This document shows, piece by piece, positions 12,330-45,666 of a DNA stretch of 64,000 bases. The stretch covers positions 182,943 to 246,942 of the forward strand of contig JBDRIV010000002.1 of the NCBI GenBank assembly GCA_043815505.1, in the 5' to 3' direction. The stretch comes from a bacterium (GTDB taxonomy: Bacteria; Patescibacteriota; JABMPQ01; JBDRIV01). Numbering within the stretch: the first letter of the stretch is position 1; each line of letters starts with the position of its first letter. Under the pieces are notes generated by a model that was not told the origin of the DNA, ran no database searches, and saw only the letters and a program-made list of their open reading frames with translations. Position numbers and translations under genes: made by a program.

Positions 12330-14195
12330 ATGTCTAATACAAATAGTAATTCAAAAAACCTGGCCAGCATTTTGCTGGCCCGTGGTAATATTACCCAGGC
12401 TCAACATGACGAGTTTTTGAAAGAGGCGGAAAAGCCCAACATTTCTCTAACTCAGTTAATTAAGGAGTCTGGTTTTGTGCAACCACGCGATTATGCTGAA
12501 GCTAGAGCCGAACTTTTGGAAATTCCTTTTATGGATTTACAAGGCAAACAATTGACTGACGATATTTTAAGTCTCATACCTTATGACGTGGCTTCTAATT
12601 ATCAGTTAGTTCCTTTTGATATTAAGAACAAGGTAATGAAAATAGCCATGCTTGATCCGGAAAATTTTAAAGCTATTGAAGCTTTAGAATTTGTTACCAA
12701 AAATAGTGGCTATGACACAGAAATTTATCTAACATACAAAGACAGTTACGAATTTGTAATTAAACAATACGCCAGCTTAAAATCAGAAATTGGCCAAGCT
12801 TTAGCTAATGCTGACATTGGTTTTAGCAAAACAAAAAAAGAAAAAGAAGCGGATAAAGAACAAATTGATATTACCGAACGTGACAAAGAATTGGAAAAAG
12901 TTATTCAGGAAGCACCAATTTCTAAAGCTGTGGCTGTTATTCTGCGTCACGCAGTTGATGGTCGTGCTTCTGATATTCATATCGAACCCATGGAAGATGA
13001 ATCTAAGGTTCGTTATCGTGTTGATGGTGTTTTGCATTCAACTTTAAAACTTCCTAAAGAAGTTCACTCGGCTATAATTTCTCGCATAAAAATTCTTTCC
13101 AATTTGAGAATTGATGAACAAAGAGTTCCCCAAGATGGTCGTTTTCGTTCTATAATTGATGGTAAAGACATTGACTTTCGTGTTTCCACTTTACCAATTG
13201 TAAATGGTGAAAAAGTGGTAATGCGTATTTTGGACAAATCGGAAGGTATTAAATCTTTGGAAGATCTGGGACTTTATGGTCGCGAACTAAAAATTATTCA
13301 GGAAAGTTCCAAAACTCCCCACGGAACAATTTTGGTTACTGGACCAACTGGTTCTGGTAAATCCACCACCCTTTATTCCGTGCTTTCAATTTTAAATGCA
13401 GAAGGTGTAAATATAATTACTTTGGAAGATCCAGTCGAATATTTTATTCCGGGAATAAATCAATCACAAATTCGTCCCGAAGTTGGTTTAAGTTTTGCTT
13501 CTGGTTTGCGTTCCATTTTACGTCAGGATCCAGACATTATAATGGTCGGTGAGATTCGCGATAATGAAACTGCAGAAATGGCTGTACACGCTGCTCTAAC
13601 TGGTCACTTAGTGCTTTCAACTCTACACACCAACAATGCTATTGGTGCCATTCCCCGTTTAATAGACATGGACATTGAACCTTTCTTATTAACAGCTGCT
13701 TTAACGGTAGTTTTGGCCCAACGTTTGGTAAGAAGCATATGTGATGGTTGCAAAGAAGAAATAGAAATTCCAGGCAATTTTAAATCAGAATTTGAAAAAG
13801 AAATTGAAGATATTAAAAAGGTCAGTCGCAAAGATATAAAAATTCCGAAAATGCGCATGTTTAAAGGAAAAGGTTGCCCTAAATGTGGTGGGCAAGGTTA
13901 CAAAGGTAGAATTGGAATTTTTGAGGTTTTACCCGTTACGCAAGCAATTCGCGATCTGATGGTTACTAATGCGACAGAAGATGCTATAATGGAGAAAGCT
14001 GTAGAAGAAGGATTTTTGAATATGAAGCAAAATGGTATATTGAAAGTATTTCAAGGATTGACTACAATGGAAGAGATAATACGTGTTACCAAAGCCGAAG
14101 AGGAGGATATAACAACAAATTTGCAGGAGGAAGCAAAAGAAAAACCATTAATAACACAAAATGGCGGAGAAGAAGCAACCTCTAAAGAACAATAA
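12330..14195 (+). CDS. pilB: Type IV pilus assembly ATPase PilB (GspE family)
   Basis: N-terminal GSPII_E N-domain, Walker A GPTGSGKSTTLYS, and a tetracysteine zinc motif (CDGCKEE...CPKCGG). Confidence 0.9.
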   Translation: MSNTNSNSKNLASILLARGNITQAQHDEFLKEAEKPNISLTQLIKESGFVQPRDYAEARAELLEIPFMDLQGKQLTDDILSLIPYDVASNYQLVPFDIKNKVMKIAMLDPENFKAIEALEFVTKNSGYDTEIYLTYKDSYEFVIKQYASLKSEIGQALANADIGFSKTKKEKEADKEQIDITERDKELEKVIQEAPISKAVAVILRHAVDGRASDIHIEPMEDESKVRYRVDGVLHSTLKLPKEVHSAIISRIKILSNLRIDEQRVPQDGRFRSIIDGKDIDFRVSTLPIVNGEKVVMRILDKSEGIKSLEDLGLYGRELKIIQESSKTPHGTILVTGPTGSGKSTTLYSVLSILNAEGVNIITLEDPVEYFIPGINQSQIRPEVGLSFASGLRSILRQDPDIIMVGEIRDNETAEMAVHAALTGHLVLSTLHTNNAIGAIPRLIDMDIEPFLLTAALTVVLAQRLVRSICDGCKEEIEIPGNFKSEFEKEIEDIKKVSRKDIKIPKMRMFKGKGCPKCGGQGYKGRIGIFEVLPVTQAIRDLMVTNATEDAIMEKAVEEGFLNMKQNGILKVFQGLTTMEEIIRVTKAEEEDITTNLQEEAKEKPLITQNGGEEATSKEQ

Positions 14196-14565
14196 TAAAA
14201 TTAAAATTGTTATTGTTGAAGATGATCCATTTCTATTGGGTATGTATGTTACCAAATTGGAAATGACTGGATTCGATGTGTCCGGAGTTGAAGACGGCAA
14301 AGAAGCTGTACCGATGGTAGAAAAAGAAATGCCGGATTTAGTCCTTTTGGATATAATTTTACCAAATGTTGATGGTTTCGAAATTTTAAAAAAATTGAAA
14401 AAACAAGATTCCACTAAAGATATTCCCATAATTATTTTCACCAATCTTGGTCAGCAAGCAGATGTTGAAAAGGGGTTAGAACTAGGAGCGGTGGATTATT
14501 TAATCAAAGCCCATTTCACACCATCAGAAGTTATTGAAAAAGTAAATAGAATAATTAAAAAATAA
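14161..14565 (+). CDS. Single-domain CheY-like response regulator receiver
   Basis: The sequence IKIVIVEDDPFLLGMYVTKL...LVLLDIILPNVDGFEILKKLKK...IPIIIFTNLG...DYLIK is a REC-domain pattern. There is no output domain. It overlaps the pilB 3' end by 35 nt in another frame, so the true start is uncertain. Confidence 0.75.
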   Translation: MAEKKQPLKNNNKIKIVIVEDDPFLLGMYVTKLEMTGFDVSGVEDGKEAVPMVEKEMPDLVLLDIILPNVDGFEILKKLKKQDSTKDIPIIIFTNLGQQADVEKGLELGAVDYLIKAHFTPSEVIEKVNRIIKK

Positions 14566-14576
14566 AATCAAAACAC

Positions 14577-18378: not shown

Positions 18379-18387
18379 AAAAATCTT

Positions 18388-19218: not shown

Positions 19219-19270
19219 CCTAGGCAAAAGAACGATTTTATTGTAAAATAAAAGTACTTAGTTCCTCATT

Positions 19271-29804: not shown

Positions 29805-30395
29805 TTATTTATGATCCTTCTGGTATTCCGCATCATTCTCCATCATTTCTTTTAAAAGTTCACGCAGATAAACTGCTTTAGATTTTCCTCGGCCCGTAGC
29901 TTTCCAGTGCAAATAACTTTCAATCCGTTCCGAAATGCGCAAAGTAAATTTAATATTAGGAACATCTTTAGCTTGTGATTTTTGAACCTTGCGTAAAAAT
30001 GAAATTAATACTTTGGGTAAATTCTCTTCAGTATAAGGTTTTACTGCCACTCCACTTATTTTGCCAGCGTTTTGCAAATTTTCAGGAATTCCTTGAGGCT
30101 GGCCAGATTCTTTATATAAACACAAAACTGGCTTCTTTTGCAAAGCCGCAAATGCCAGAATATAAGAAACTTCGTTACTTAGAGTAGAAACTTCAATAAT
30201 AAAGCCATCAGTGCCGGCAAACAGTACGCCATTTTTCTTACTATCTCGTTTTACAGTTTCAGTTGAAAAGTTTTGTTCCTCACCAATTTTTCTGGCGTAC
30301 TCAATATTTTCGCGATCCAAAGTGTGCTCTGCAATTTCGTAAGCAGCTTTTATTTTATAATCTTCAGTTTGTGGTCCGTAGAAGTAAACTCTCAT
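29805..30395 (-). CDS. Hypothetical protein with an N-terminal Rossmann-like domain fused to a C-terminal ribbon-helix-helix-like segment
   Basis: RVYFYGPQ...GVLFAGTDGFIIEVS...AFAALQKKPVLCLY resembles the nucleoside-deoxyribosyltransferase-like fold. The C-terminus IKFTLRISERIESYLHWKA...AVYLRELLKEM looks like a CopG/RHH. Confidence 0.4.
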   Translation of the reverse strand: MRVYFYGPQTEDYKIKAAYEIAEHTLDRENIEYARKIGEEQNFSTETVKRDSKKNGVLFAGTDGFIIEVSTLSNEVSYILAFAALQKKPVLCLYKESGQPQGIPENLQNAGKISGVAVKPYTEENLPKVLISFLRKVQKSQAKDVPNIKFTLRISERIESYLHWKATGRGKSKAVYLRELLKEMMENDAEYQKDHK

Positions 30396-30413
30396 AATCT
30401 ATTTTATAAAACT

Positions 30414-31445
30414 TTAGGTGGTGGTAATTTCACCAGCCAAATTTGTTTGCAAAAATTCACTGAAGCGCGATGGTGTTTTTGTTTGCGCCAGTGCCAACAT
30501 CGATTTAATAAGCGTACTTTCCAAAGTCATATTATTTACAACTGTTGCTTCAATTCCCATTTCATCCAATTGTTTCACCAGATGTTGTTTGTTATTTTCA
30601 TCCAACATAATGTCGCGATAAATCAAACGTTTTCCTTGCTTGGTAATTTCAAGCATGGCTTTTTGGTGCTCTGGAGAAATGTTAGTTTGAATTGTGGACT
30701 GAATTAGAATTGCCCGAGCATCAGTTTCAGCTAAATTTTCCAAAAGTTTAGCCGGCAGAGAAGGATACAAATAAATTACCTGAATATTATTATCCATTTC
30801 TGTTGCGATATTAGTATTTGTTTGTTCAGTTTTCAAAATGTTATTTGCTAACTTTACTCCAAAATCAATTTGTCCAATTGGATCCATGCGAAAGCTGGAA
30901 AAGATATTTATAGGATTGTTGGGTGAGCGAAAAGCCCGGTTGGCACGCACCAACTGATTGCCAAACATTAAAGAAACATCGCGGTGCGGAAGAGTAGCCA
31001 CTTGAACGGCGTTGATTAAATTTGCCTTAGTTCCTAAAAATTCAAATTTTTGCAGAGAAGTTTCATCGTACTTATTATGAATCGCAAAATTGTAATTTCC
31101 TGTGCAGACAAGTGGTTTGTTAAAATCTGCCAAAAGAAAAGACAACGCCGTTGCGGTGTAGGTGATATTTTCAATATTATGTACCAGCACAAAGCCATCA
31201 AAATCATTTTCGTGTTTTTTTATAGTTCTCGCAAAATCAATCCAGTCGGTTTGGCTAACTTGTTCAGGTTCCTTTGGTAAAAGCAAAATTGGTTGAACAT
31301 CACAAATAAGCTCAAGTTCAGGAATGAATTTAAGCCACTTTTTTATATCTTTCTCGTTTTTAATGGAAGTAGACTCTGGGTCGTTGTAAGAAAGCGTTGT
31401 TCCAGAAGAAAGAAATAATCCAATTTTAGTATTCTTTTTAGGCAA
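30414..31445 (-). CDS. L-asparaginase family protein (type I-like)
   Basis: IGLFLSSGTTLS corresponds to TGGTI. VLVHNIENITYTATALSFLLADFNKPLVCTGN corresponds to HGTDTMAYTASALSFML..KPVV.TGSQ. Confidence 0.6.
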   Translation of the reverse strand: MPKKNTKIGLFLSSGTTLSYNDPESTSIKNEKDIKKWLKFIPELELICDVQPILLLPKEPEQVSQTDWIDFARTIKKHENDFDGFVLVHNIENITYTATALSFLLADFNKPLVCTGNYNFAIHNKYDETSLQKFEFLGTKANLINAVQVATLPHRDVSLMFGNQLVRANRAFRSPNNPINIFSSFRMDPIGQIDFGVKLANNILKTEQTNTNIATEMDNNIQVIYLYPSLPAKLLENLAETDARAILIQSTIQTNISPEHQKAMLEITKQGKRLIYRDIMLDENNKQHLVKQLDEMGIEATVVNNMTLESTLIKSMLALAQTKTPSRFSEFLQTNLAGEITTT

Positions 31446-36045: not shown

Positions 36046-36080
36046 GCGGCGGTTTCTATAAAAGAAACCGCCGCACTTCT
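36046..36080. terminator. Bidirectional terminator between convergent genes
   Basis: gcggcggtttct-ataaa-agaaaccgccgc. A-rich sequence lies upstream and T-rich downstream, so it would serve both strands. Confidence 0.7.
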
Positions 36081-36299: not shown

Positions 36300-39014
36300 T
36301 TATTTCTGATCACTAGCTAATAAGTGAGGGGAATCACTTTTTGGTGCTTTAATAGGCACCAATAATGTGAAGGTGGTTCCGTGTCCTTTCCCTTTACTAT
36401 TAACAACAACCTTGCCACCATGAGTCTCAATAATTTTCTTGATAATATATAATCCCAAACCAGAACCGTCAGCATTAACTTTAGCAATTCCACGGGCGCG
36501 CACAAATTTTTCAAACAGTTTATCAACTTCATTCGGATCAATTCCCACACCAGTGTCTCTCACATTTATATGAACATATTTTTCGTCAATATCACAAGTC
36601 ACATCCACACTTCCTTTTAGTGTATATTTAATAGCGTTATCTAAAAGGTTGGTAACAGCAATGCGCATTTTGTCTGGATCAACAAATAGAACTGGATATT
36701 TTTTGTGAGGTTTTTTCCAATTTAGTTTAAGACCTTTGTTTTTAGCGCGAATTTGAAACTCGCTTACCACACTGGTTACTAAATCTGTTATTTGAATTTC
36801 GGTTCTATCCAAACGGAAACGACTGGATTCTATGCGGGAAACATTTAAGAATATATCAATAAGTCGGACCAAGCGTTCAATATTTTCCAAGTTAGTATTA
36901 ACAATTCTTTTTTGTTCTTTGGTCATTTTACCGAAGTCGCCTTCAGAAAGCATAGAAAGATAGCCTTTAATTCCTGATACCGGTGTGCGCAATTGGTGAG
37001 CAGCCACCGATAAAAATTCTGACTTGGCTTCATCAAGCTCTTTCAAGTGAGCATTAGCTTCAGCTAATTTAGCGGTAGCTTTCTTAACTTCAATTTTTAG
37101 TTTATCAGCAAATTGTTGAGTTTCACTATAAAGACGGGCGTTTTCAATAGCAATAGCTGCTTGGTTAGCTAAAGCTTTTAAGATGCTTAAATTAATCTCT
37201 GAAAGCGGACGGTTTGTTTTGGCATTATCAACTCCAATTACACCCAAAACCTTATCTTTGGTCATCAGAGGAAGGGCGATAAAAGCCTTGGTGCCCAGTT
37301 TCTGAATATGTTCTTTATTAACAAATTTATTTGCTTCAGCATTTTCGACTACTACAGTTTTACGGCGATCAATTACTTGGCCTAAGATACTAGTTTTTGG
37401 ATCAATGCAAATATTTTTGTAGAGATTTTCATCATCACCTCGTCCCATGGTGGCATACAGGCAATTATCTTCTTCTTTAAGTAAATAAAGCAAAGCGCGG
37501 TCGGAATTGGAAGAATCAATTACAGCATCCATAACATAATTTAAGGTTTTTTCTTCTTCCAAAGTAGCGTTAATAGCCTTACCTAAATCATACAATGTAG
37601 AAAGTTCCTTAACGCGTTGTTTTGTTTCTTCGTAAAGATTAGCGTTGTCTATGGAGGTAGCAATTTGTGGTGACAAAGTATCAAGTAACTCCAAATCTTC
37701 TGGCGAAAACATGTCTCCGGAAAGTTTGGCACCAATTACCAATGTTCCAATTAAGCGACCTTTCAAAATTATGGGTGTTACTAAATCTGAATCTAAATCT
37801 CGTAAATAGTCTGTAACTTCCTCAACTGTTTTTTTGTAAGTTTCATCTGGAGAACTTTCCATTTTGTGTTCCAGCTCATTAAAAACCACTGTACTTTTTT
37901 CTTTATTTAAAAATTTGTACAGTGGGGAATTGAATTCAAGTTTTTCTAATTTTTCATGCTTAAAACCATCGTTAGCTATAGCTTCGTTACCAGCCTGATG
38001 ATTCCAAAGTACCAGTGCAATGCTGTCTATTTTTAATATGTGTTTTAAATCTTTGATTATGCTTTTTGAAAGTTGTTTTAATTCAATGGTTTGGCTTACT
38101 TTGCGGCTTAAATCTTTCAAAGTTTCGTTGTAATCGTATTTGTCTTTGAAAAAGATTTTATCAGTTGCCTTACGCAACCAATCACGTAGGGGATTATACC
38201 CAATAGCAACTAGTACAGCGCTTATAATGGCACCAGTCATAGTTCCGCCAAACAACTGACCGAAAAATATAATAGACACAGCAAAAACGGAAGTAATAAT
38301 TAGAACCAGAACCGAATATGTTATAGACCGTACGATAAAGATTCGAATGTCCATTAAACGGTGTTTTACAATTGCGTATGTTGCAAAGGAAACAAAAAAT
38401 ACTAAAGCATAAGGTCCAAATTTACTATATATAAAATTTCCTGTAATACTTGGCAATATAAGATTTGTAAGTAAACCAATGGTTAAGCTAATAAATAATC
38501 CTAATGCAAAATACTTAAATTGAATTCTAACGTTACCTTTTGTTTTTATATAGCTGCGAATTAAAGCATATATTGATCCTATGAAGAAAATTAAAGCATA
38601 TATCAAGAAAAGGAAATATAGTTTTCCAGTTATAACTGTTACCCCAGATTCATATCTTTCAACATTTTCAATAATCAAATCGGTTAGAAGTAAAATAGAA
38701 ATTAATAAAGGTAATATATTTGTAAAATAGAAGAAGTACTTATTAAGATTAAATATTCTTTTTGGAAAGATAATAGAAAATCTTAATAGTGACCATGCAA
38801 TGAAAATTGCAGCCATGAATGTAATCCTTGTCCAAACTAAGCCATTATTAAGTGAATTATCAGACATGTAATTAGATACTGACCAAAAAATAATAAAAAG
38901 AATTAACAGGGCAAAGTAAATATTAATTTTATTTTTCCTGTTTTTATACAAGACAATAGCTCCAAGGGAAGCATTGATTATTTGTAGTATTATTAAATAG
39001 AATATTTCACTCAT
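36300..39014 (-). CDS. Sensor histidine kinase: N-terminal multi-TM sensor, two GAF domains, HisKA and HATPase_c
   Basis: About seven N-terminal TM helices. H-box LSVAAHQLRTPVSGIKGYLSML. G-boxes DTGVGIDP...GSGLGLYIIKKI. No adjacent response regulator. Confidence 0.85.
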   Translation of the reverse strand: MSEIFYLIILQIINASLGAIVLYKNRKNKINIYFALLILFIIFWSVSNYMSDNSLNNGLVWTRITFMAAIFIAWSLLRFSIIFPKRIFNLNKYFFYFTNILPLLISILLLTDLIIENVERYESGVTVITGKLYFLFLIYALIFFIGSIYALIRSYIKTKGNVRIQFKYFALGLFISLTIGLLTNLILPSITGNFIYSKFGPYALVFFVSFATYAIVKHRLMDIRIFIVRSITYSVLVLIITSVFAVSIIFFGQLFGGTMTGAIISAVLVAIGYNPLRDWLRKATDKIFFKDKYDYNETLKDLSRKVSQTIELKQLSKSIIKDLKHILKIDSIALVLWNHQAGNEAIANDGFKHEKLEKLEFNSPLYKFLNKEKSTVVFNELEHKMESSPDETYKKTVEEVTDYLRDLDSDLVTPIILKGRLIGTLVIGAKLSGDMFSPEDLELLDTLSPQIATSIDNANLYEETKQRVKELSTLYDLGKAINATLEEEKTLNYVMDAVIDSSNSDRALLYLLKEEDNCLYATMGRGDDENLYKNICIDPKTSILGQVIDRRKTVVVENAEANKFVNKEHIQKLGTKAFIALPLMTKDKVLGVIGVDNAKTNRPLSEINLSILKALANQAAIAIENARLYSETQQFADKLKIEVKKATAKLAEANAHLKELDEAKSEFLSVAAHQLRTPVSGIKGYLSMLSEGDFGKMTKEQKRIVNTNLENIERLVRLIDIFLNVSRIESSRFRLDRTEIQITDLVTSVVSEFQIRAKNKGLKLNWKKPHKKYPVLFVDPDKMRIAVTNLLDNAIKYTLKGSVDVTCDIDEKYVHINVRDTGVGIDPNEVDKLFEKFVRARGIAKVNADGSGLGLYIIKKIIETHGGKVVVNSKGKGHGTTFTLLVPIKAPKSDSPHLLASDQK

Positions 39015-39108
39015 CGTAAATAAGCAATATAATAAGTAATTTATTATATTTTACCTTTTTCATTATATAAAAACAAACCAGACTCAACCTTGTGGATATA
39101 TTGTCTGG

Positions 39109-39684
39109 TTATATAGCAATCTTCTGGAGGACGATTCTTTCTGGATATCTTCTTGAATAATGTTCCACCGCTTCATATATATTTATATATATAGAAACAC
39201 TTTTAGATCCCATATACTCTTTTTTCCCTCCTAAGCGATGAAAAACAATATTAAGACTTCGAAGTAATCTGATCAAACGTACATCGGCAGCAGCATACCA
39301 ATGAACAAGACCATGATTGAAACCAACCTCACAAGCTTTTATGAGTAATCCAATCATTACATCGTGATTCTCATTGCTGCCCTTTTTGACTACTAGGCGC
39401 GAAACTTCCACACTGGGTACTTTCTTGTCATCAATTGGAAAATGGGATTCCATTGGGAACGTATCACAGACAATCAACCTAACTCCTCCAACTACTTTAT
39501 CCCTTTCATTATTCAAACGTGCAATAATGTGAAGTGACTTTTTATCGAACTCGTCGGTTTCAAGAGGTTCTGGATATATCGACGGATCGATATAATTCTG
39601 TTCCTTATATACTTCGTATCTCAGTTTGTAGAAAAGTTTAAGATCCTCTGGCGTTGCAAGCCTGAACATTATTTCTTTAGACAC
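39109..39684 (-). CDS. GNAT-fold acyltransferase-like protein (N-acyl amino acid / autoinducer-synthase-like)
   Basis: FRLATPEDLKLFYKLRYEVYKEQ...VVGGVRLI resembles the LuxI / N-acyl-amino-acid-synthase N-terminal signature. Confidence 0.4.
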   Translation of the reverse strand: MSKEIMFRLATPEDLKLFYKLRYEVYKEQNYIDPSIYPEPLETDEFDKKSLHIIARLNNERDKVVGGVRLIVCDTFPMESHFPIDDKKVPSVEVSRLVVKKGSNENHDVMIGLLIKACEVGFNHGLVHWYAAADVRLIRLLRSLNIVFHRLGGKKEYMGSKSVSIYINIYEAVEHYSRRYPERIVLQKIAI

Positions 39685-39701
39685 CTAGTCATCACCTCCT
39701 C

Positions 39702-40376
39702 TCAGTACTTTGCAATCACTAAGTAGTCAGAATCACCGTATGTTTTGGTGATTTTTACATGGTTAAAGTTAGAGAACAACCTTTTTATGTCATTCTCACT
39801 CATAAAATCATACGGACCTCTTTTGCAAAGAAAGGTTAGTATTGAATCAAAAAACCATACAAGAATAAGCGAAGGTATCGCTTTCAGGCTTGTGATTTGA
39901 TTCAAGGGATTTTTTGAGATTAGTTTTTTAATGTTCCAATCCTTGCTTGGAAATGTTGCTATGACCACCCCGTTTTTATTGAGAATGGTATGTAATCTGT
40001 TAACAACTTGAAGTCTATTAGGTTCTGTATAAAGAGAATCAATGATGATAATTCTATCAAAACTGATATTCTGATCATGAAAATGGCTTATCCCTTCAAA
40101 AAAATTACCTCTAACAAAGATCCCATTAGGGCAATTTTTCCTAGCAAACTTAATCATAATTTCCGAGATATCCACACCAAACCATTTGGTTTTTATATAA
40201 TCAGGCCATCTTTTTGTAATCGTGCTTGTGCCACAACCAAGGTCTAAAATATAGCTATTATTTAGCAGGTTATGCTGGAGATGTAAAATTACATCATCAA
40301 GTTTCTGGATATAGGGCCTAAAGTAATATAGACCCCCATATACAATTGCATACAGGTTCCAAAAAAGCTTTAACAT
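39702..40376 (-). CDS. Class I SAM-dependent methyltransferase
   Basis: Motif I ILDLGCGTSTIT and a Rossmann-type layout. Confidence 0.7.
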   Translation of the reverse strand: MLKLFWNLYAIVYGGLYYFRPYIQKLDDVILHLQHNLLNNSYILDLGCGTSTITKRWPDYIKTKWFGVDISEIMIKFARKNCPNGIFVRGNFFEGISHFHDQNISFDRIIIIDSLYTEPNRLQVVNRLHTILNKNGVVIATFPSKDWNIKKLISKNPLNQITSLKAIPSLILVWFFDSILTFLCKRGPYDFMSENDIKRLFSNFNHVKITKTYGDSDYLVIAKY

Positions 40377-40458
40377 TTTTCTACTCCCTATGTGAATGTG
40401 CGTATTTTTCTTATTTTATAGCCAAAGCATAATACAATAGTTAGGAATTGTCAATACT

Positions 40459-40486
40459 TTGACAAGACCTTATAAAAATATATAAT
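40459..40486 (+). promoter_or_regulatory. Sigma-70-like promoter (TTGACA, 16 nt, TATAAT) for the sensor paralogs
   Basis: ttgacaagaccttataaaaatatataat. Confidence 0.45.
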
Positions 40487-40581
40487 ATAATCACAATCAT
40501 GAAAGCTTGTTTCAACCATAGAATAGGGAAAAGGTACATGTTATAATATCTGGGGAACAGCTTTTTTATTTTATAGATTTT

Positions 40582-41952
40582 ATGAAGATAGATTTTATAT
40601 ATATTTTACAAATTATCGTAGCTGTTTTTGATTTACTTTTAGCTTTATATGTTTTTGCCAAAGGAAATAAGAATAATAAAAATATATTTTATGCTTTAAA
40701 TATTTTGGCGATTATTTTTTGGACGATTGGATTAATTTTGTTCCAATCGTTTTCTTTTGTTGGAGATAAACTTTGGATTACTATTTTGTATATAGCACCA
40801 ACCTTTACAGCTAGTACATTTTTAGCATTTTCATATTTTTTCCCCACTAAAGATAAGAGATATTCTAAAACAAAGATTATTTCAATATTTATTATAAATT
40901 TATCACTAATTATATTAATTCTAATACCCGATTTAATTGTAATTGAAGGAAGTGTTTTTGATGGAATTAAGGGAATAACACTTGGTCCTGCTTATTTTTT
41001 ATATGTTTTATATATTTTTGGATTTTATACAATCGCATTTACAAGAATATTTTTAAAACATTTTCAAGTTAATCGAATAGAGAAAAAACAGATAAAAATT
41101 CTATTAATTGGTTATATGATTGCAGCCAATGCAGCATTTATTACAAATCTATTTTTACCATGGATAGGCAATTTCTATTTTAATAGATTCGGACCAATGT
41201 TTTCATCAATTATGGTAGCAGTTGTTGCAATAGCCATCATCCGTTATCGCTTCATGGATATTCGAGTGGTAATTAAAAGAAGTTCAATTTACATTATAAC
41301 GGTTGTAATTGCCTTAGTTATTTATGCGGCGTTAATATTTTTATTTCAAACAGAAATATTTTCCAATTTAAATTTAAATAGCACAACCGCCACTCTAATT
41401 TTAACTGCTCTCATTATTGCCGGTGTGCCACTAATTCAAAAAGGAATTAAAACATTAACAGAAAAGGTTTTTACTAAGGAAGAATATGATCCGCAAAAAG
41501 CATTAGACAAGTTAGAAAAAATTACAATAGATAATCAATCACAAAATGTTATAGAAAAAGCAGAAGAAATTATCAAAAAACAATTAGGCGTAGAAAGCGT
41601 TAAAACAGAGACCAAGGATTTTAACAATGATCTTCTGACTAAATATTTAAATAAGAGAGGGGAGTCTGTGATTGTGAAAGAGGAGTTGGAATTTATTCAG
41701 CAGAGAAATTCTGATTTGAAAGAAGTTTTGGAAAGACTAAAATTATGGTTTAAATATAATCAATCTGATGTTGGAGTGATTCTTCAGAATCAGCAAAAAA
41801 TTATTGGAGTGGTGTTGCTTGGACCCAAAGAAAACAAAAAACCATATTCCGTGCAAGACATAGAATTTTTAAATCAATTCCAAGTACGAATTTCTATCGT
41901 GCTGGCCAATACACTTTTATATGAAAGTACAATTAATCAATTAAAGAAATAG
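40582..41952 (+). CDS. Truncated sensor paralog A: histidine-kinase-like multi-TM sensor domain plus a GAF-like C-terminal domain, with no transmitter
   Basis: It is homologous to the N-terminal region of the kinase at 36300-39014. FYALNILAIIFW matches YFALLILFIIFW. NRFGP...IRYRFMDIRVVIKRSSIY matches SKFGP...VKHRLMDIRIFIVRSITY. KVFTKEEYDPQKALDKL matches KIFFKDKYDYNETLKDL. It ends ...VRISIVLANTLLYESTI, like the end of a GAF domain. Confidence 0.75.
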   Translation: MKIDFIYILQIIVAVFDLLLALYVFAKGNKNNKNIFYALNILAIIFWTIGLILFQSFSFVGDKLWITILYIAPTFTASTFLAFSYFFPTKDKRYSKTKIISIFIINLSLIILILIPDLIVIEGSVFDGIKGITLGPAYFLYVLYIFGFYTIAFTRIFLKHFQVNRIEKKQIKILLIGYMIAANAAFITNLFLPWIGNFYFNRFGPMFSSIMVAVVAIAIIRYRFMDIRVVIKRSSIYIITVVIALVIYAALIFLFQTEIFSNLNLNSTTATLILTALIIAGVPLIQKGIKTLTEKVFTKEEYDPQKALDKLEKITIDNQSQNVIEKAEEIIKKQLGVESVKTETKDFNNDLLTKYLNKRGESVIVKEELEFIQQRNSDLKEVLERLKLWFKYNQSDVGVILQNQQKIIGVVLLGPKENKKPYSVQDIEFLNQFQVRISIVLANTLLYESTINQLKK

Positions 41953-41953
41953 C

Positions 41954-43315
41954 ATGGAGTATGTTGAACATATTTTGTTTAGTTTAATGTTAATTGCAAA
42001 TTTTGTAATTGCTTTTTACGTTATTTTAAAATCAAAAAACAGAATTATTGGAGGTTTGTATTTTATAATGTCATCCAGTTTGTCAATTTGGGGTATTAGT
42101 TCATATATTTTAGACCTTTTTCAATCTATACAAACAAGATTATTTTTAGCTAGACTAGATTATGTTTTGGGTGTTATACCAACATTATTCTTTGTAATAT
42201 TTTCAATATATTTCCCAAATAAGTTGAAAAACCTGAAAAGCAAAATATTAGAGATAATTTTATTCTTAATATCTTTTTTTGTATTAATACTATCAATCAC
42301 AGATTTAATTATAAAAAATATTAGTATTGAGAATAATTTCACAATTATTGAAAGAGGGTCGTTTCATATTGTATATACTTTATTTTTATCTTTGTTTATA
42401 TTATTTGGTAGTTTTTTGATGCTATACAAATATAGAAAAAGTGAAAGTATAGAAAAATCACAAATATTTTATTATTCCTTAGGAGGTATTTCAACTGCTA
42501 TATATATTGTAATTTTGGATCAAATTCTCCCTTATTTTTATAAATATCCAACAAAGTGGGGATTGTTAGCAATACCAATATACATTGCAACAGCTGCCTA
42601 TGCCATAATTCGCTATCGTTTCATGGACATTCGAATAATTATCAAGCGTAGTTCTATTTATATAGCTACCGTGGCCTTGGCAATTTTGATTTATATTTTG
42701 ATAGTTTATTTATTGCAAACATATTTTGTGACTAATAGTTTAAATAATAATGCCACAGTTATTTCTGCATTAATTGTAATTATTGGTATTCCCTTCATTC
42801 AAAAAGGCTCAAAGAATTTGGTAGAAAAGGTTTTTACCAAAGAAGAATACGATCCACAAAAGGCCTTAACCGAACTTGAAAGCAAATCAACAGATCGGCA
42901 TTCGGCAGAAGTTATAAAAGAAATAGAAAACATTTTAAAGAAACAATTTAGTCTGGAATTTGTAAAAACAGAATTGGCTGATGTAAATAAAAACTTATTA
43001 CTGGATTATTTAAAACAACAAGGAGAATCTATCATTATAAAAGATGAAATCAAGTTCTTGCATCAAAAAGATCCTCACAGCAAAGATTTATATGAAAAAT
43101 TGGCCATGTGGTTTAAATACAATAAAGCTAAGGTTGGTGTGATTCTAACAAATCAAGAAAATATTATTGGTGTAGTTTTATTAGGTGCAAAAAAACAAAA
43201 TGAAACCTACTCAGTCCAAGACATAGAATTACTAAATCAATTCCAAGTACGAATTTCTATCGTGCTGGCAAATACGCTTCTTTACGAAAGCACAATAGCT
43301 CAACTGAAAAAATAG
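41954..43315 (+). CDS. Truncated sensor paralog B: same architecture as paralog A, in tandem
   Basis: About 50% identical to paralog A at protein level. The last ~60 nt are ~93% identical to paralog A at DNA level. Confidence 0.75.
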   Translation: MEYVEHILFSLMLIANFVIAFYVILKSKNRIIGGLYFIMSSSLSIWGISSYILDLFQSIQTRLFLARLDYVLGVIPTLFFVIFSIYFPNKLKNLKSKILEIILFLISFFVLILSITDLIIKNISIENNFTIIERGSFHIVYTLFLSLFILFGSFLMLYKYRKSESIEKSQIFYYSLGGISTAIYIVILDQILPYFYKYPTKWGLLAIPIYIATAAYAIIRYRFMDIRIIIKRSSIYIATVALAILIYILIVYLLQTYFVTNSLNNNATVISALIVIIGIPFIQKGSKNLVEKVFTKEEYDPQKALTELESKSTDRHSAEVIKEIENILKKQFSLEFVKTELADVNKNLLLDYLKQQGESIIIKDEIKFLHQKDPHSKDLYEKLAMWFKYNKAKVGVILTNQENIIGVVLLGAKKQNETYSVQDIELLNQFQVRISIVLANTLLYESTIAQLKK

Positions 43316-43322
43316 CCAAAAA

Positions 43323-43362
43323 GTGTTATAATAAAACAAAACATTAACATCAAAACTATGAG
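43323..43362 (+). repeat. Copy 1 of a 40-bp direct repeat that includes an extended -10 element (TGnTATAAT) and an ATG
   Basis: gtgttataataaaacaaaacattaacatcaaaactatgag. Copy 2 is at 45627-45666 with one mismatch. Confidence 0.8.
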
Positions 43363-43407
43363 TATGGTTTTGACTATAGAATGTTATTTTGATAAACTAC
43401 AAATTAC

Positions 43408-43437
43408 TGGGGTATTTTGCCCCATTTTTGTTTTTTG
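43408..43437 (+). terminator. Rho-independent terminator
   Basis: tgggg-tattttg-cccca followed by tttttgttttttg. Confidence 0.6.
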
Positions 43438-43553
43438 AAAATGCTCTCTTGATAACTCAATCCTCAGTACACAATGTTAATTTAGATGCTCATTATGAGT
43501 AGCTAGCTTAGGATTTGCAGTTATCAGGTTAAGCAGGAAAGGAGGATAGCGAG

Positions 43554-43694
43554 ATGGAAGAGTTAAAAATGATCCAGGAACAAGAAACGGAGTATCAGGG
43601 AAGTCGGTTTGCCAGCATGGAAGTATTCGACACCGATACATCCTGTTGCGATTGTGACTGCGATTGTGATTGCGGTGACACCGACAACTACTGA
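43554..43694 (+). CDS. Candidate RiPP precursor peptide: 46 aa, six Cys, an acidic leader and a CCDCDCDCDC core
   Basis: A strong Shine-Dalgarno sequence (aaaggagga) lies 7 nt upstream of the ATG. Translation: MEELKMIQEQETEYQGSRFASMEVFDTDTSCCDCDCDCDCGDTDNY. It sits immediately upstream of a radical-SAM/SPASM gene. The opposite-strand 100-aa ORF (43477..43779) is its mirror image and has no ribosome-binding site. Confidence 0.6.
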   Translation: MEELKMIQEQETEYQGSRFASMEVFDTDTSCCDCDCDCDCGDTDNY

Positions 43695-43708
43695 TCCGAT
43701 TGTCCGGC

Positions 43709-43740
43709 GTGGGAGGGGTCAATAAAATGACCCCTCCCAC
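43709..43740 (+). promoter_or_regulatory. 13-bp perfect GC-rich stem-loop between the precursor and the radical-SAM gene, with no U-tract
   Basis: gtgggaggggtca-ataaaa-tgacccctcccac. This is the placement typical of the precursor/enzyme decoupling hairpins seen in RiPP operons. Confidence 0.55.
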
Positions 43741-43766
43741 AATCATCTTATGAAAGGAGGTGTGAA

Positions 43767-45050
43767 ATGATACCAGCATTAGCCCAATGGGAAATATCAG
43801 ATAAGTGTCAGTATCGATGTCAACATTGTTACTACACTAGTCCGGAAGAGGTTTCATTATCACCAGGCATTTTGAATGACGAGCAAATGTGGCAAATTGC
43901 CAATATAATCGTATATCACCAACTCTTCTTCGTAACTTTTACAGGAGGAGAACCGCTAGTTATAAGTGCATTACTTGTACAGTTGGCCAAGTATTTGCAT
44001 GAGCACAATGTCTCGTTGTCTTTAAATACCAACTTGGCATTAATGAATGAAAGTCTTTTTGCAGATTTGCATGTTGATCGAATGTTAATTTCCTGTCCAG
44101 CAACAGATCCTTCGGTGTATCGAGAAGTAACTGGAAACGGTAATTATCACCTCTTCGAACAAAAGCTCAAGCTTCTGATTGAAGCTGATGCAAATTTCAC
44201 TGTAAACATGGTTGTTAGCAAATTAAATCACTTACTAATCAGAGAAACAGCTTCTCATTTAGCAAACCTGGGAGTGAAAAGATTTGCTGCAACACCGACA
44301 AGTATCAATCCCACAAATCCAAATTTTTCGTTGTTGCTTGATTTAAATGAGGTCCAACAAGTTATTTTTGATCTCATTTGGGCTTACGAAGAATTGGGAT
44401 TAGAAGTTGATATTATGGAGTCAATTCCGAAATGCGTGATGCCGCTTAGAGCATTCGAGCTCGAGTTGCCGTTTGTATATAGGTCTTGTCATGCCGGTAA
44501 AAGAAACGGCACAATATCTGCCAATGGTGACGTTCGTCCTTGCGGACATAATCCTCGTGTTTTCGGTAATATACTTACAGATAAAGTTGAAACTATTTGG
44601 AATCGAATGCACGATTGGAGAGAAGCCAGTGGTAATTTTCACACAGACTGTCTTGGTTGCGATATTTTCAGCAATTGCGGTGGCGGATGCCGAGTTGATG
44701 CCGCTACGCGGGAAGGAGAAACAGCAGCTAAACACCCTTATATGACTCATAAGCTGACAGCTCCACCTGTAAAGCCGAAAGAGATAACTCTTTTACCAGA
44801 CACGGTAATTCGGCCGTCTAGATCTTTCCACTTTAGATCTGAAGATGGTGGGTGGCTCGTTGCTCCTGGATCGCCGAGAAACATAATTCATGTCAACCAA
44901 GTATTGTATGAATTCTTGGTTTCCAGCAGAGATTTGAATCCGATGCCAGTTGCAGAATTGGCAACTAAGTATAATACCACAGCAAACGATTATAATTTTC
45001 AGCGAGTTTTAAATGAAGTGATCAAGAAAAAGTTCTTTGTTATAATGTAG
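43767..45050 (+). CDS. Radical SAM enzyme with a C-terminal SPASM/twitch domain (peptide-modifying maturase candidate)
   Basis: Shine-Dalgarno sequence aaaggagg. The CxxxCxxC motif is at the very N-terminus (CQYRCQHCYY). GGEPL motif present. SPASM cysteines: CHAGKRNGTISANGDVRPCGH...CLGCDIFSNCGGGCRVDA. A ~110-aa C-terminal extension of unknown function follows. Confidence 0.8.
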   Translation: MIPALAQWEISDKCQYRCQHCYYTSPEEVSLSPGILNDEQMWQIANIIVYHQLFFVTFTGGEPLVISALLVQLAKYLHEHNVSLSLNTNLALMNESLFADLHVDRMLISCPATDPSVYREVTGNGNYHLFEQKLKLLIEADANFTVNMVVSKLNHLLIRETASHLANLGVKRFAATPTSINPTNPNFSLLLDLNEVQQVIFDLIWAYEELGLEVDIMESIPKCVMPLRAFELELPFVYRSCHAGKRNGTISANGDVRPCGHNPRVFGNILTDKVETIWNRMHDWREASGNFHTDCLGCDIFSNCGGGCRVDAATREGETAAKHPYMTHKLTAPPVKPKEITLLPDTVIRPSRSFHFRSEDGGWLVAPGSPRNIIHVNQVLYEFLVSSRDLNPMPVAELATKYNTTANDYNFQRVLNEVIKKKFFVIM

Positions 45051-45130: not shown

Positions 45131-45613
45131 ATGAATAAATATTTACAACTTGGAAAGTATTCTAAAGATTGTCCGAAAGAACTTTTAGTTGAAGTTAAAA
45201 AAATTAAAAAAGAAAATAATCAAAAGGATTATATATTGGAGATATTTAAATTGGTTAAGGAAGAATTTAATCCTCAAAAACATGACATTACGACCACGAA
45301 TGATTTTAAAATATCGCGTTTTATATCTGCGAATGAGGTATATAAAAAAAGACAACGGTCATGTGGTTCAATCGCTACAGTTATGGCTTCGTTGTTAAGA
45401 ACTCTTGGATATCCAACAAAGCTTGTTAATGGATTTTATATTAAAAACAATCCCCAAATGCGTCATGCGTGGAATGAAGTGATGATTAATGGAAAATGGG
45501 TAGCAATTGATATAATGAGAAATGATTTTAAATTAGATAAGTATCATGTTAGAAACGATGAGTGGGTAGATTGGAACGATTTGGAAAAAGAAATGCAAAA
45601 AAGTGAGAAATAA
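45131..45613 (+). CDS. Transglutaminase-like cysteine peptidase domain protein
   Basis: Cys-His-Asp core: RSCGSIATVMASLLRTLGYPTKLVNGFY...HAWNEVMINGKWVAIDI. This matches the transglutaminase-core pattern. Confidence 0.7.
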   Translation: MNKYLQLGKYSKDCPKELLVEVKKIKKENNQKDYILEIFKLVKEEFNPQKHDITTTNDFKISRFISANEVYKKRQRSCGSIATVMASLLRTLGYPTKLVNGFYIKNNPQMRHAWNEVMINGKWVAIDIMRNDFKLDKYHVRNDEWVDWNDLEKEMQKSEK

Positions 45614-45626: not shown

Positions 45627-45666
45627 GTGCTATAATAAAACAAAACATTAACATCAAAACTATGAG
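45627..45666 (+). repeat. Copy 2 of the 40-bp direct repeat. It overlaps the start codon of the 1075-aa surface protein gene.
   Basis: gtgctataataaaacaaaacattaacatcaaaactatgag. Confidence 0.8.

Follow-up and report, generated by a model that had tools for sequence, protein, structure and literature searches.

In an uncultured, small-genome Patescibacteria (CPR) bacterium, we found sensor genes adjoining a modified-peptide cassette: a complete membrane sensor kinase, together with two copies of its sensor half that lack the kinase part (Table 1; the window is the whole 64,000-nucleotide stretch of DNA analysed). Our preferred but tentative reading is that the locus may elaborate, in a lineage-specific way, on a module conserved in Patescibacteria (CPR), in which HisKA_7TM receptors stand beside a radical-SAM/SPASM CDCDCDCDxGDxDNY-peptide cassette; the sensor genes most likely encode receptors tied to the modified peptide, with the acyl enzymes most likely being lineage-specific accessories. 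The support for this peptide-receptor reading is entirely genomic, coming from homology and from the genes that lie nearby. Not one HisKA_7TM protein has a known ligand (PMC5847659, PMC6944256), and the recurrent pairing of sensor and cassette suggests a first candidate signal for this very large family.

Table 1 Features of the locus (positions in the window).
Feature	Position	Strand	Basis
Single-domain response-regulator receiver, inside type IV pilus operon	14161..14565	+	Only receiver in window
Complete sensor histidine kinase, 904 aa	36300..39014	-	Pfam domains; boxes in translation; PrsK alignment
GNAT/kinase spacer: CCAGAC...GTCTGG hairpin then T-run; TTTATA-17-TATAAT promoter-like site	39043..39108	-	Consensus matches only
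Minimal N-acyl-amino-acid-synthase-type GNAT, 191 aa from GTG start (NCBI: 186 aa)	39109..39684	-	Pfam, NCBIfam, relatives
Class I SAM-dependent methyltransferase, 224 aa	39702..40376	-	Methyltransf_31/25/11/12/23 matches
Divergent promoter region	40448..40486	.	Palindrome + sigma-70 consensus
Kinase-less sensor paralogue 1, 456 aa: HisKA_7TM, two TM helices, shortened GAF	40582..41952	+	Pfam, alignments, AlphaFold model, GAF profile
Kinase-less sensor paralogue 2, 453 aa, architecture as paralogue 1	41954..43315	+	Pfam, alignments
Terminator-like hairpin with T-run, after paralogue pair, upstream of precursor	43408..43424	+	Sequence prediction
Peptide precursor, 46 aa, MEELKMIQEQETEYQGSRFASMEVFDTDTSCCDCDCDCDCGDTDNY	43554..43694	+	RBS-like AGGAAAGGAGGA upstream; conserved C-terminal motif
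Perfect 13-bp hairpin, precursor/rSAM interval	43709..43740	+	dG -34.4 kcal/mol for 77-nt stretch, z -4.45
Radical SAM/SPASM peptide maturase (rSAM), 427 aa	43767..45050	+	Radical_SAM and SPASM domains
Transglutaminase-like cysteine-protease-fold protein, 160 aa	45131..45613	+	Transglut_core 3e-15

Sensor kinase and kinase-less paralogues

Every gene of the signalling island is an intact open reading frame, placed as in a first-pass annotation of this DNA. The kinase carries, in order, HisKA_7TM (residues 7–223; 51 bits, Pfam cut-off 28.6), two further TM helices, GAF1 (approximately 290–465), GAF2 (485–625), HisKA (663–730) and HATPase_c (779–888), and its translation shows an H-box (AAHQLRTP), an N box, and G1 and G2 boxes. 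PrsK (TIGR02916) is the sole named family colinear with the sensor half of the kinase (residues 1–470; 17–463 versus 13–465, E = 1e-16), and the sensor halves of the kinases at related loci L008, L011 and L080 are also colinear with it. The estimate of about seven TM helices in the first-pass annotation holds for the Pfam domain but not for the whole membrane region, in which the AlphaFold model and the sequence suggested nine helices, with an extracellular beta-hairpin at 120–134 and two extra hydrophobic helices at approximately 228–297, both modelled with low confidence.

Alignments revealed that kinase residues 1–470 match paralogue 1 (28% identity, E = 1e-37) and paralogue 2 (25% identity, E = 1e-23) end to end, and that the paralogues, the second of which starts 1 nt past the stop codon of the first, share 44% identity (E = 3e-101). 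Both pass the HisKA_7TM Pfam threshold, confirming the proposed homology of the three membrane domains, and Pfam detected neither HisKA nor HATPase domains in either. The single GAF-like domain ascribed to each was recovered as well: a profile of the C-terminal domain matched solved GAF domains (4mcw, 6e-5; 5w10, 7e-5, nearly full length; DevS and others) and the second GAF of the kinase (hhalign E = 4e-5), with approximately 22 residues missing relative to the kinase and other relatives. The membrane parts of the two paralogues are strongly diverged (13–28% identical), and their GAF parts stayed similar (55–83%).

Kinase-less forms of 448–533 aa made up 33 of the best 150 family representatives and covered all 469 positions of the sensor profile; the length distribution among these 150 was bimodal, with a second mode at approximately 690–765 aa. 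Kinase-less members were also seen in unrelated contexts (L001, L006 and L007), those of L001 and L006 standing away from any peptide cassette. Since the reading frames are intact and the kinase-less architecture is recurrent and common, the paralogues are not the pseudogenes that would have undone the earlier interpretation.

Peptide cassette and transcription signals

A RiPP cassette does lie immediately downstream of the paralogues, as had been noted, and comprises precursor, rSAM/SPASM and transglutaminase-like genes. The precursor ends in CCDCDCDCDCGDTDNY, and wherever the DNA preceding an rSAM relative with at least 44% identity was present, it encoded the C-terminal motif CDCDCDCD[AG]GD[IT]D[ND]Y. 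The CX3CX2C cysteines of the maturase were invariant in 20 relatives, and its scores fell below every named NCBIfam cut-off, GeoRSP, StsB and PapB being nearest. A transglutaminase-like gene, whose product is a candidate leader peptidase, also lies 3' of the rSAM gene in L007, L008, L012, L013, L038, L040, L043, L045 and other loci. No exporter or immunity gene for the peptide was recognisable at the cassette.

Three or four separate transcription units were predicted. The kinase may have its own promoter, since the spacer between it and the GNAT gene holds a hairpin followed by a T-run, as well as a promoter-like site, and co-transcription of the two genes is therefore uncertain. Upstream of paralogue 1, the palindrome TTGTCAATACTTTGACAA (40448–40465), unique within the window, is made up of two back-to-back -35 boxes, and a promoter with 12/12 matches to the sigma-70 consensus lies on the + strand (40459–40486). 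GC content is 28–31% over 40–44 kb versus approximately 36% elsewhere. Two features count against the peptide-receptor reading: the predicted terminator splits the paralogue pair from the peptide operon, and neither a peptide exporter nor an adjacent response regulator was found. The latter agrees with the first-pass annotation; a type IV pilus operon holds the sole receiver domain of the window, whose partnership with the kinase would be speculative.

Linkage of sensor genes to the cassette

We compared 98 distinct related rSAM loci, grouped by rSAM identity (at least 44%, n = 14; 33–42%, n = 38; below 33%, n = 46). A sensor-family or kinase gene lay within 5 kb at 8 of the 14 closest loci, and at 5 of the 6 for which both flanks were visible over at least 1.9 kb, whereas more distant rSAM genes had a sensor gene at only 3/38 and 0/46 loci, i.e., 3/84 (Fisher p = 2.6e-6, for loci that are not phylogenetically independent and with p uncorrected for kinship). 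The co-occurrence of this sensor domain with RiPP cassettes, which the first-pass annotation had put forward as a check, is thus seen around close rSAM relatives.

In L044, L042 and L007 the sensor gene immediately precedes that of the precursor; it lies downstream of the cassette in L011, L040, L043 and L080, and divergently in L024, and this variation in position and orientation argues against frozen synteny. Furthermore, the linkage is kept in more loci than a syntenic asparaginase/196-aa pair. In most close relatives the sensor family stands next to the orthologous cassette, as a TM-only, TM-GAF or full-kinase form; in L040, L043 and L080, TM-only copies (220–243 aa) form tandem arrays of two to three that begin shortly after the cassette. 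At L019, a close relative with good coverage, no sensor gene lies within 10 kb, which counts against the peptide-receptor reading.

GNAT and methyltransferase

A GNAT fold was found for the acyltransferase, which is best assigned, from its sequence, to the FeeM / N-acyl amino acid synthase / LuxI-like clan, in line with the earlier suggestion and not with an unrelated acetyltransferase family. It scored above the Pfam cut-offs for FeeM (40.8 bits, 2.4e-10) and Acetyltransf_5 (33.5 bits, 7e-8), and below that for Autoind_synth (17.3 versus 24). Its best named family in NCBIfam is the exosortase-associated acyltransferase TIGR03694 (97.7 bits, E = 7e-28, below the 111.95 cut-off), its match to OlsB is weak (E = 0.0026; 17.5 bits versus a cut-off of 350), and its best solved sequence relative is, also by a weak match, the CoA-dependent AHL synthase 6wns. 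A word-index search of 5.8 billion clustered proteins returned 10 relatives only, none above 37% identity, the nearest being PEP-CTERM/exosortase-associated acyltransferases (30–37%). The protein shares the motifs LRYEVY, LETDE[FY]D, GxVRL and E[VI]SRLVV with its relatives, and lacks their N-terminal extension and approximately 40-aa central insert (186–191 versus 247–291 aa). It also keeps the charged residues of the alignment (R22, E42, D44, D47, R69, E93, S95, R96), which we take to be LuxI-family signature residues.

The methyltransferase gave no equivalog-level NCBIfam match, and its best solved relatives are generic or small-molecule methyltransferases. Both genes lie between the kinase and the paralogues, as previously described, but their place in a recurrent signal module did not hold: homologues were present at 0 of the 98 related rSAM loci, so the acylated-metabolite half of the model is specific to this genome. 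At two related loci (L008 and L080), FadD-like ligase, PlsC-type LPAAT and HAD-IB genes form one operon-like run with the kinase, with PlsC directly upstream of it; FadD is also present in L009 and L024.

Proposed mechanism and alternative explanations

Under the peptide-receptor reading, the ligand of the membrane domain would be the mature Cys/Asp-rich peptide, which is probably cross-linked by thioethers, or else a membrane cue associated with that peptide, and the kinase would signal to a response regulator whose gene lies elsewhere. The two paralogues without a kinase part may be accessory receptors, acting as co-sensors or as decoys that pair with the kinase via the shared TM/GAF module, or alternatively peptide-binding, immunity-like proteins; the partner-switching role put forward in the first-pass annotation would be equally conjectural. 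The GNAT would be a minimal N-acyl amino acid synthase, and together with the methyltransferase it would most likely make an amino acid or aminolipid that is N-acylated and possibly methylated; the acyl module would be a variable accessory and not core, relatives having non-homologous FadD/PlsC/HAD lipid genes in the equivalent position. A precedent for a peptide signal is the effect of ranthipeptides on quorum-sensing circuits (Chen et al. 2020, as cited in PMC8102284).

The acyl enzymes could instead supply the signal themselves, with the kinase and paralogue 7TM domains sensing a diffusible N-acyl amino acid, methylated or not. Such a LuxI/LuxN-like loop, with the cassette as neighbour or target, would be a miniature of the PrsK and N-acyl-amino-acid-synthase pairing in PEP-CTERM/exosortase systems, to which both TIGR03694 and PrsK belong as parts of one regulon. 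It is favoured by the matches to these two families, the single-strand run of methyltransferase, GNAT and kinase (gaps of 17 and 94 bp), the conserved charged motifs and 6wns match of the GNAT, the non-homologous PlsC acyltransferases directly upstream of orthologous kinases in L008 and L080, and the 2011 study as cited in PMC7293339 and PMC11072679. However, we regard it as unlikely, given the absence of GNAT homologues from all 98 loci, their scarcity among clustered proteins, GNAT scores that fall short of the cut-offs for both TIGR03694 and Autoind_synth, the promoter-like and terminator-like signals between GNAT and kinase, and the failure to find exosortase, PrsR, PrsT or PEP-CTERM genes in the window. 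CPR bacteria usually lack fatty-acid synthesis, which also puts the acyl donor in question. A lipid ligand also fits the recurrent lipid genes beside kinases. The 7TM sensors might monitor the bilayer or lyso-lipid state, while the GNAT and methyltransferase, OlsB/OlsG-like, make and methylate an aminolipid, the FadD, PlsC and HAD enzymes of relatives re-acylate scavenged lipids, and the cassette is close by inherited synteny with no shared function. The Acetyltransf_5 assignment (the OlsB-type Pfam family), the weak OlsB match, the lipid genes at L008, L080, L009 and L024, and some real synteny of the asparaginase/196-aa pair around the cassette are consistent with such membrane-lipid homeostasis; we nevertheless judge it unlikely, as sensors adjoin the cassette with no lipid genes in view (L007, L011, L040, L043 and L044), changing in position and orientation, and are rare around distant rSAM relatives from similar organisms (3/84).

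The TM-only forms cannot signal alone, so that an immunity or transport role fits them at least as well as a receptor role. Extended to all kinase-less and TM-only HisKA_7TM proteins, which would then bind, sequester or pass the peptide while only the full kinase signals, this idea draws on the lack of a recognisable exporter or immunity gene in the cassette, the tandem output-less copies downstream of it in L040, L043 and L080, and the fast divergence of the paralogue TM parts. It appears improbable against the conserved cytoplasmic GAF, which implies a cytoplasmic function or partner, the occurrence of kinase-less members away from any cassette (L001 and L006), and a family otherwise known only as a kinase sensor domain (PMC5847659, PMC6944256). 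The genes might even form no functional unit, each lying independently of the others in an AT-rich, variable part of a small genome, and the separate predicted transcription units, the local drop in GC and the uniqueness of the GNAT and methyltransferase to this genome among the 98 loci would fit; the strong, position-independent enrichment of sensors near close rSAM orthologues makes this very improbable.

Comparison with known systems

The Prs/PEP-CTERM/exosortase system (2006, PMC1569441; Craig, Cherry and Brady 2011, as represented in citing papers) resembles this locus in the colinearity of PrsK with the sensor halves of this kinase and those of L008, L011 and L080, in its exosortase-associated acyltransferases, which come nearest to the GNAT among named families and among database proteins alike, and in encoding a same-clan acyltransferase near Prs-type regulatory genes. 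The locus differs in scoring far below the family cut-offs for PrsK (112 bits for the whole kinase and 61 for the sensor half; cut-off 300) and TIGR03694 (GNAT, 97.7 versus 111.95 bits), its shorter GNAT, which lacks the extension and insert, its second kinase GAF, the absence from the window of the sigma-54 regulator PrsR, PrsT, exosortase and a PEP-CTERM protein, and its Patescibacteria-type host, which is not a Gram-negative exopolysaccharide producer. The kinase-less paralogues and peptide cassette are no part of Prs.

FeeM/LuxI-like synthases share with the GNAT its fold, above-threshold FeeM and Acetyltransf_5 matches, relatives' motifs and a weak 6wns match, although the GNAT is shorter (186–191 versus 247–291 aa) and below the Autoind_synth cut-off (17.3 < 24). 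The OlsB/OlsA/OlsG comparison rests on Acetyltransf_5, the adjacent methyltransferase, and the PlsC/OlsA-like O-acyltransferases in the equivalent place at L008 and L080; however, the OlsB match is marginal (E = 0.0026, 17.5 versus 350 bits), no OlsA-type gene lies in the window, and the methyltransferase has no specific similarity to a characterised lipid methyltransferase.

As in AgrC/AgrA, NisK/NisR and SCIFF-type ranthipeptide systems, modified-peptide genes here adjoin a polytopic kinase without a large extracellular domain. Quorum sensing in clostridia has been linked to SCIFF-type ranthipeptides (Chen et al. 2020, as summarised in PMC8102284). A further resemblance is the Cys-rich precursor paired with an rSAM/SPASM enzyme akin to StsB and PapB, which mature sacti/ranthipeptides. 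Unlike AgrC (HPK10-type) and NisK (two-TM), this kinase is HisKA-type with a HisKA_7TM sensor; no adjacent response regulator or exporter is present, peptide modification and secretion are putative, and kinase-less receptor paralogues are added. Non-enzymatic histidine-kinase-like sensor proteins, with a sensor and no transmitter, have been noted for archaea (PMC5847659), and the paralogues similarly keep a kinase-type sensor module without HisKA and HATPase; here, however, that module is a membrane HisKA_7TM domain plus GAF, in tandem copies next to a peptide cassette and to a complete kinase from their own family.

Organisation of the island and its peptide cassette

The island consists of three minus-strand genes (methyltransferase, GNAT and histidine kinase) and two plus-strand genes (the tandem kinase-less sensor genes, paralogues 1 and 2) diverging from a 205-bp spacer, followed by a plus-strand peptide cassette; coordinates are collected in the table. 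Its transcription signals were assessed as consensus matches only. These comprise a perfect TTGACA-16-TATAAT promoter 5' of paralogue 1, a terminator-like hairpin 3' of paralogue 2, a bidirectional terminator 3' of the kinase gene, and a short hairpin with a T-run plus a promoter-like site in the gap between the GNAT and kinase genes. Given such signals between its genes, the island is probably organised as three or four transcription units and not as a single operon. The palindrome in the spacer could be a candidate operator; no second copy was found elsewhere in the window, and it therefore offers no evidence of a regulon. GC content is 28-31% across the paralogue pair (40001-44000) vs ~36% for the window, and reaches 37-41% in the cassette and the next gene, above that of the paralogue pair. 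The window also encodes two giant, secreted proteins with NHL / FG-GAP repeats, which are mutually related (E 7e-46); one of them lies directly 3' of the cassette.

Features of the island, its surroundings and the related loci (L handles, fetched loci, mostly around relatives of the window's radical-SAM gene)
Feature	Location	Strand	Details
Type IV pilus operon	9562-21101		PilM, PilO, PilB-like and PilT-like ATPases, PilC, several pilins, prepilin peptidase
Receiver	14161-14565		134 aa, single domain, between the PilB-like and PilT-like ATPases
Asparaginase and uncharacterised 196-aa gene	29805-31445	-
Bidirectional terminator	36046-36074		consensus match
Histidine kinase	36300-39014	-	904 aa
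GNAT	39109-39684	-	191 aa
Methyltransferase	39702-40376	-	class I, SAM-dependent
Exact palindrome	40448-40465		TTGTCAATACTTTGACAA; at back-to-back -35 boxes of divergent promoters
Paralogue 1	40582-41952	+	456 aa
Paralogue 2	41954-43315	+	453 aa
Terminator-like hairpin	43408-43424		consensus match
Precursor ORF	43554-43694	+	46 aa; good ribosome-binding site; end CCDCDCDCDCGDTDNY
Perfect hairpin	43709-43740		13 bp, GC-rich, between precursor and maturase gene
Radical-SAM/SPASM gene	43767-45050	+
Transglutaminase-like gene	45131-45613	+
NHL / FG-GAP repeat proteins	45662-48889; 55993-60141
~215-aa family	L011 9343-9987; L009 9339-10004; L080 11528-12181		also at ~25 other loci
Second radical-SAM/SPASM gene	L040 6760-8109; L013 4122-5477	-	one lineage
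HTH-nucleotidyltransferase gene	L040 12842-13806; L043 3508-4525
Tandem acyltransferase region	L002 10001-17173		Massilia-type PEP-CTERM locus

In the cassette, the precursor and maturase genes are separated by a hairpin (dG -34.4 kcal/mol for the 77-nt stretch, z -4.45), which could set the ratio of precursor to enzyme transcripts, as happens in other operons for modified peptides; after it come the radical-SAM/SPASM enzyme and then a transglutaminase-like protein. The CX3CX2C motif, the SPASM domain and the adjoining short Cys-rich precursor mark a cassette of the sacti/ranthipeptide type, with predicted thioether chemistry. The maturase scores far under the cut-offs of named families (best NCBIfam match GeoRSP, 79.9 bits vs 400; PapB, 56 vs 340), and no NCBIfam model matched the precursor or the ~215-aa or ~200-aa cassette partners. 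Assemblies of Patescibacteria, Komeilibacteria, Falkowbacteria and Kerfeldbacteria contain many relatives of the enzyme. A precursor ending in CDCDCDCD[AG]GD[IT]D[ND]Y was present for every relative of at least 44% identity with visible upstream DNA, and a CDCD precursor lies upstream of the radical-SAM gene in L007, L008, L009, L011, L012, L019, L038, L040, L042, L043, L044, L072 and L077; this family carries a PF[AS]xM-like leader motif. More distant cassettes have ...SGCDCD... precursors. The ~215-aa family, which has no Pfam or NCBIfam match, adjoins the radical-SAM gene in cassettes without the transglutaminase-like gene and is probably an alternative cassette component. In L040 and L013, a second, distantly related radical-SAM/SPASM gene stands divergently upstream of the cassette.

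The sensor kinase and its intact kinase-less paralogues

By Pfam, the kinase is composed of HisKA_7TM (PF16927; residues 7-223, 51.4 bits, gathering threshold 28.6), two GAF stretches, HisKA (E 3e-17) and HATPase_c (E 4e-27), thus carrying the domains of a two-component kinase. The H-box histidine, the N box and the G boxes are all readable in the translation, and the kinase therefore looks active. No response regulator is adjacent to it, as the first-pass annotation had stated, so that the arrangement departs from a classical two-component gene pair; a receiver HMM scan of all six frames detected a sole receiver in the window, which belongs to the type IV pilus operon at a distance of 22 kb. 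A link between this receiver and the kinase is speculation.

The two paralogues share 44% identity (E 3e-101), and each aligns over its full length with kinase residues 1-470 (paralogue 1, 28% identity, E 1e-37; paralogue 2, 25%, E 1e-23). Their HisKA_7TM scores are 52.3 and 49.1 bits, respectively (threshold 28.6), and the kinase and each paralogue cover positions ~2-222 of the 224 in the profile. Pfam detected no transmitter domain in either. A six-sequence alignment revealed an invariant cytoplasmic R-x-M-D-I-R motif after the seventh helix and a deletion of ~22 residues within the C-terminal domain of both paralogues. Pfam alone gave no GAF match for this domain in either protein; its profile nevertheless matched solved GAF structures (4mcw, 6e-5; 5w10, 7e-5, query 12-173; also DevS and PDE GAFs) and aligned with GAF2 of the kinase (E 4e-5, hhalign), so that its earlier description as GAF-like proves correct, though the domain is shortened. 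The arrangement of a membrane sensor with tandem transmitter-less paralogues likewise holds, and the accompanying count of about seven transmembrane helices rises to about nine in the AlphaFold model of paralogue 1 (mean pLDDT 73): seven helices and a beta-hairpin at 120-134 are followed by two more hydrophobic helices modelled at low confidence, and then by an alpha/beta domain. When the full model was compared with the PDB by Foldseek, the only hits were weak ones of a generic 7-TM (GPCR) kind (E ~2e-4, TM-score ~0.3-0.57), which are uninformative about homology or ligand.

Decay of the paralogues into pseudogenised fragments was weighed as an alternative. It is rejected, since both genes retain full-length ORFs whose products align from one end to the other with many relatives of equal length. 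Since 44% amino-acid identity implies saturated synonymous sites, dN/dS was set aside in favour of identity in 30-codon windows; the membrane parts of the pair are 13-28% identical and the GAF parts 55-83%, a pattern that does not fit decay and fits diversified ligand binding with a common cytoplasmic partner. Over the last ~36 codons (41845-41949 vs 43208-43312), nucleotide identity is 82%, with third positions 63% identical vs 33-53% elsewhere, which suggests that gene conversion acted locally or that constraint is unusually strong here. We also searched a profile of the sensor module (469 positions) against 1.84 billion representative proteins, obtaining 62,357 matches at E<=0.001, of which 5,977 reached E<=1e-30. 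Among the best 150, 33 were 448-533 aa long and spanned the entire profile, most others measured ~690-765 aa, corresponding to sensor plus kinase, or ~1,080 aa, where an N-terminal extension is added, and intermediate lengths were very few. These separate length classes, together with the full profile coverage, indicate that the kinase-less 7TM-GAF form is a recurrent architecture and not a decay product. Single genes of this kind stand alone in two Patescibacteria-like contigs (L001, L006).

Sensor genes accompany the CDCD peptide cassette

HMMs derived from the sensor alignment, along with the proteins of the window, served as queries against six-frame translations of 98 distinct loci around radical-SAM relatives, the window itself being left out. 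A sensor-family or kinase gene lay within 5 kb in 8 of 14 distinct loci whose radical-SAM identity was at least 44% (in five of the six where at least 1.9 kb of each flank was visible), in 3 of 38 at 33-42% identity, and in none of 46 below 33% (one at 6 kb). The closest group differs from the other two combined (8/14 vs 3/84) at p = 2.6e-6 in a Fisher test that ignores shared ancestry. Co-occurrence of the sensor domain with radical-SAM peptide cassettes, one of the checks set by the first-pass annotation, is thus borne out.

The arrangement of the sensor genes varies. The kinase is directly upstream of the precursor in L044 and L042 and downstream of the cassette in L011; a kinase-less 7TM-GAF gene is directly upstream of the precursor in L007; two or three TM-only copies follow the cassette in L040/L013, L043 and L080; L024 has a divergent TM-only gene; and L008 and L009 contain mixtures. 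In the well-covered close relative L019, no sensor-family gene was found. Between the cassette and the TM-only copies of L040 and L043, an HTH-nucleotidyltransferase gene is inserted, followed by a HEPN-domain gene in L043 and, in the corresponding position, an unannotated 132-aa ORF in L040, an arrangement that is toxin-antitoxin-like.

The association might reflect synteny only, in which case the island would be an ordinary set of poorly characterised genes. The asparaginase gene and the uncharacterised 196-aa gene of the window are syntenic with the cassette in L007, L008, L009, L024 and L080, that is, in six loci including the window, so that inherited gene order accounts for part of the linkage. 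The linkage between sensor and cassette nonetheless persists where this pair is absent.

The GNAT and methyltransferase genes

The GNAT scored above the Pfam thresholds of FeeM / N-acyl amino acid synthase (PF21926; 40.8 bits, threshold 27) and Acetyltransf_5 (PF13444; 33.5 bits, threshold 22.4), and its initial assignment as N-acyl-amino-acid-synthase-like stands. Its best NCBIfam match was TIGR03694, a family of acyltransferases associated with PEP-CTERM/exosortase systems (97.7 bits, E 6.8e-28), below the cut-off of 111.95, and proteins of that family are its sole database relatives, at 30-37% identity. Alignment with nine relatives identified R22, E24, E42, D44, E45, R69, E93, S95 and R96 as invariant; compared with TIGR03694 proteins, the window GNAT keeps the conserved motifs but lacks the N-terminal extension and a central insert of ~40 residues. 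Its AlphaFold model is of moderate confidence (pLDDT 66), and Foldseek returned generic GNAT folds with AHL synthases interspersed; since the fold cannot separate the subfamilies, sequence profiles were used to assign the family. Searched against the PDB with phmmer, the GNAT recovered an AHL synthase (E 9e-4) and not FeeM itself. The methyltransferase is an unspecific class I enzyme.

In Massilia-type loci, the GNAT relatives form tandem pairs beside a PrsT-like TPR protein and PEP-CTERM genes. The TPR protein adjoining the tandem TIGR03694 acyltransferases in L002, L003 and L004 is 926 aa long, and the neighbourhood also carries a stand-alone GAF protein and ScmC / PqqD-like / NTP_transf_5 genes; acyltransferase, GAF and peptide-maturation-like genes thus cluster in a proteobacterial system as well.

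A LuxI-like autoinducer role for the GNAT is possible, but conservation lends it no support. The LuxI-type Autoind_synth model (PF00765) gave 17.3 bits (E 0.0037, threshold 24) and NCBIfam TraI models ~20 bits (cut-offs 250-292). No GNAT homologue was found in the 98 related loci, and the methyltransferase has just two marginal matches there (L007, E 9e-5; L092, E 4e-4), on which grounds we reject the two genes as core components of the peptide-linked module. Acyl or lipid enzymes beside HisKA_7TM kinases are a recurring theme, though the enzymes are non-homologous: a PlsC-type acyltransferase and a HAD-IB hydrolase stand directly upstream of the orthologous 7TM-GAF kinase in L008 and L080, and a FadD-like ligase is nearby in L008, L009, L024 and L080. 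This recurrence leaves a lipid or acyl ligand in contention. The most plausible view of the GNAT and methyltransferase is that they form a genome-specific accessory, which would make an N-acyl amino acid or aminolipid.

Proposed function

The island had been read as a module producing and sensing a signal, either a small acylated metabolite or the modified peptide. The gene arrangement was confirmed and this reading of it in part supported: co-occurrence favours the peptide, whereas the acyl-metabolite half loses ground by its non-conservation. The best-supported interpretation links the function of the HisKA_7TM proteins to the CDCD peptide. In the simplest form, these proteins would serve as membrane receptors for the peptide, with the full kinase passing the signal to a distant regulator and the kinase-less paralogues acting as accessory receptors, whether co-sensors, decoys or immunity-like binders. 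The position-independent, conserved linkage to one well-defined peptide family makes this a concrete, testable ligand hypothesis, with precursor, maturase and receptor all amenable to heterologous expression, and it raises the possibility of cell-cell or host-associated signalling among Patescibacteria. To our knowledge, almost nothing is known about signal transduction in these organisms. No peptide exporter was found in the 64 kb window.

A bolder version, which we consider unlikely, is that Cys/Asp-rich, radical-SAM-cross-linked peptides form a new class of pheromones in Patescibacteria, with the HisKA_7TM membrane domain as their receptor. The TM-only, TM-GAF and TM-GAF-kinase forms would then constitute a graded set of receptor, decoy and immunity proteins, and output might pass through the lone receiver of the type IV pilus operon. 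If true, the HisKA_7TM family would gain its first ligand, and these episymbiotic, reduced-genome bacteria their first cell-cell signalling circuit.

Comparison with known systems

HisKA_7TM is a very large sensor family, and the same sensor module occurs in PrsK, the regulator of PEP-CTERM/exosortase systems. In the literature found, the family figures solely as a sensor domain, and no ligand is reported for it. The sensor of PrsK, which acts as kinase in the PEP-CTERM/exosortase regulon, was described as novel (PMC1569441). PrsK is found with a tandem or nearby sigma-54-dependent response regulator, PrsR, and a TPR protein, PrsT, in genomes with exosortase and PEP-CTERM proteins (Haft 2006). 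No exosortase, PrsR, PrsT or PEP-CTERM gene was present among the ORFs of the 64 kb window. The PrsK model TIGR02916 scored 112 bits with the whole kinase and 60.7 bits with its sensor half alone (cut-off 300), and the sensor half is colinear with the model (17-463 vs 13-465, E 1e-16), as are those of the orthologous kinases in L008, L011 and L080. With scores so far under the cut-off, these profile comparisons indicate a common sensor module and not membership of the PrsK family. The component domain families, and the general design of a peptide cassette beside a membrane kinase, are already known; the conserved pairing of the HisKA_7TM sensor family with the Patescibacteria CDCD peptide family, and the kinase-less and TM-only paralogues spread around its cassette, appear to be new in the sources searched.
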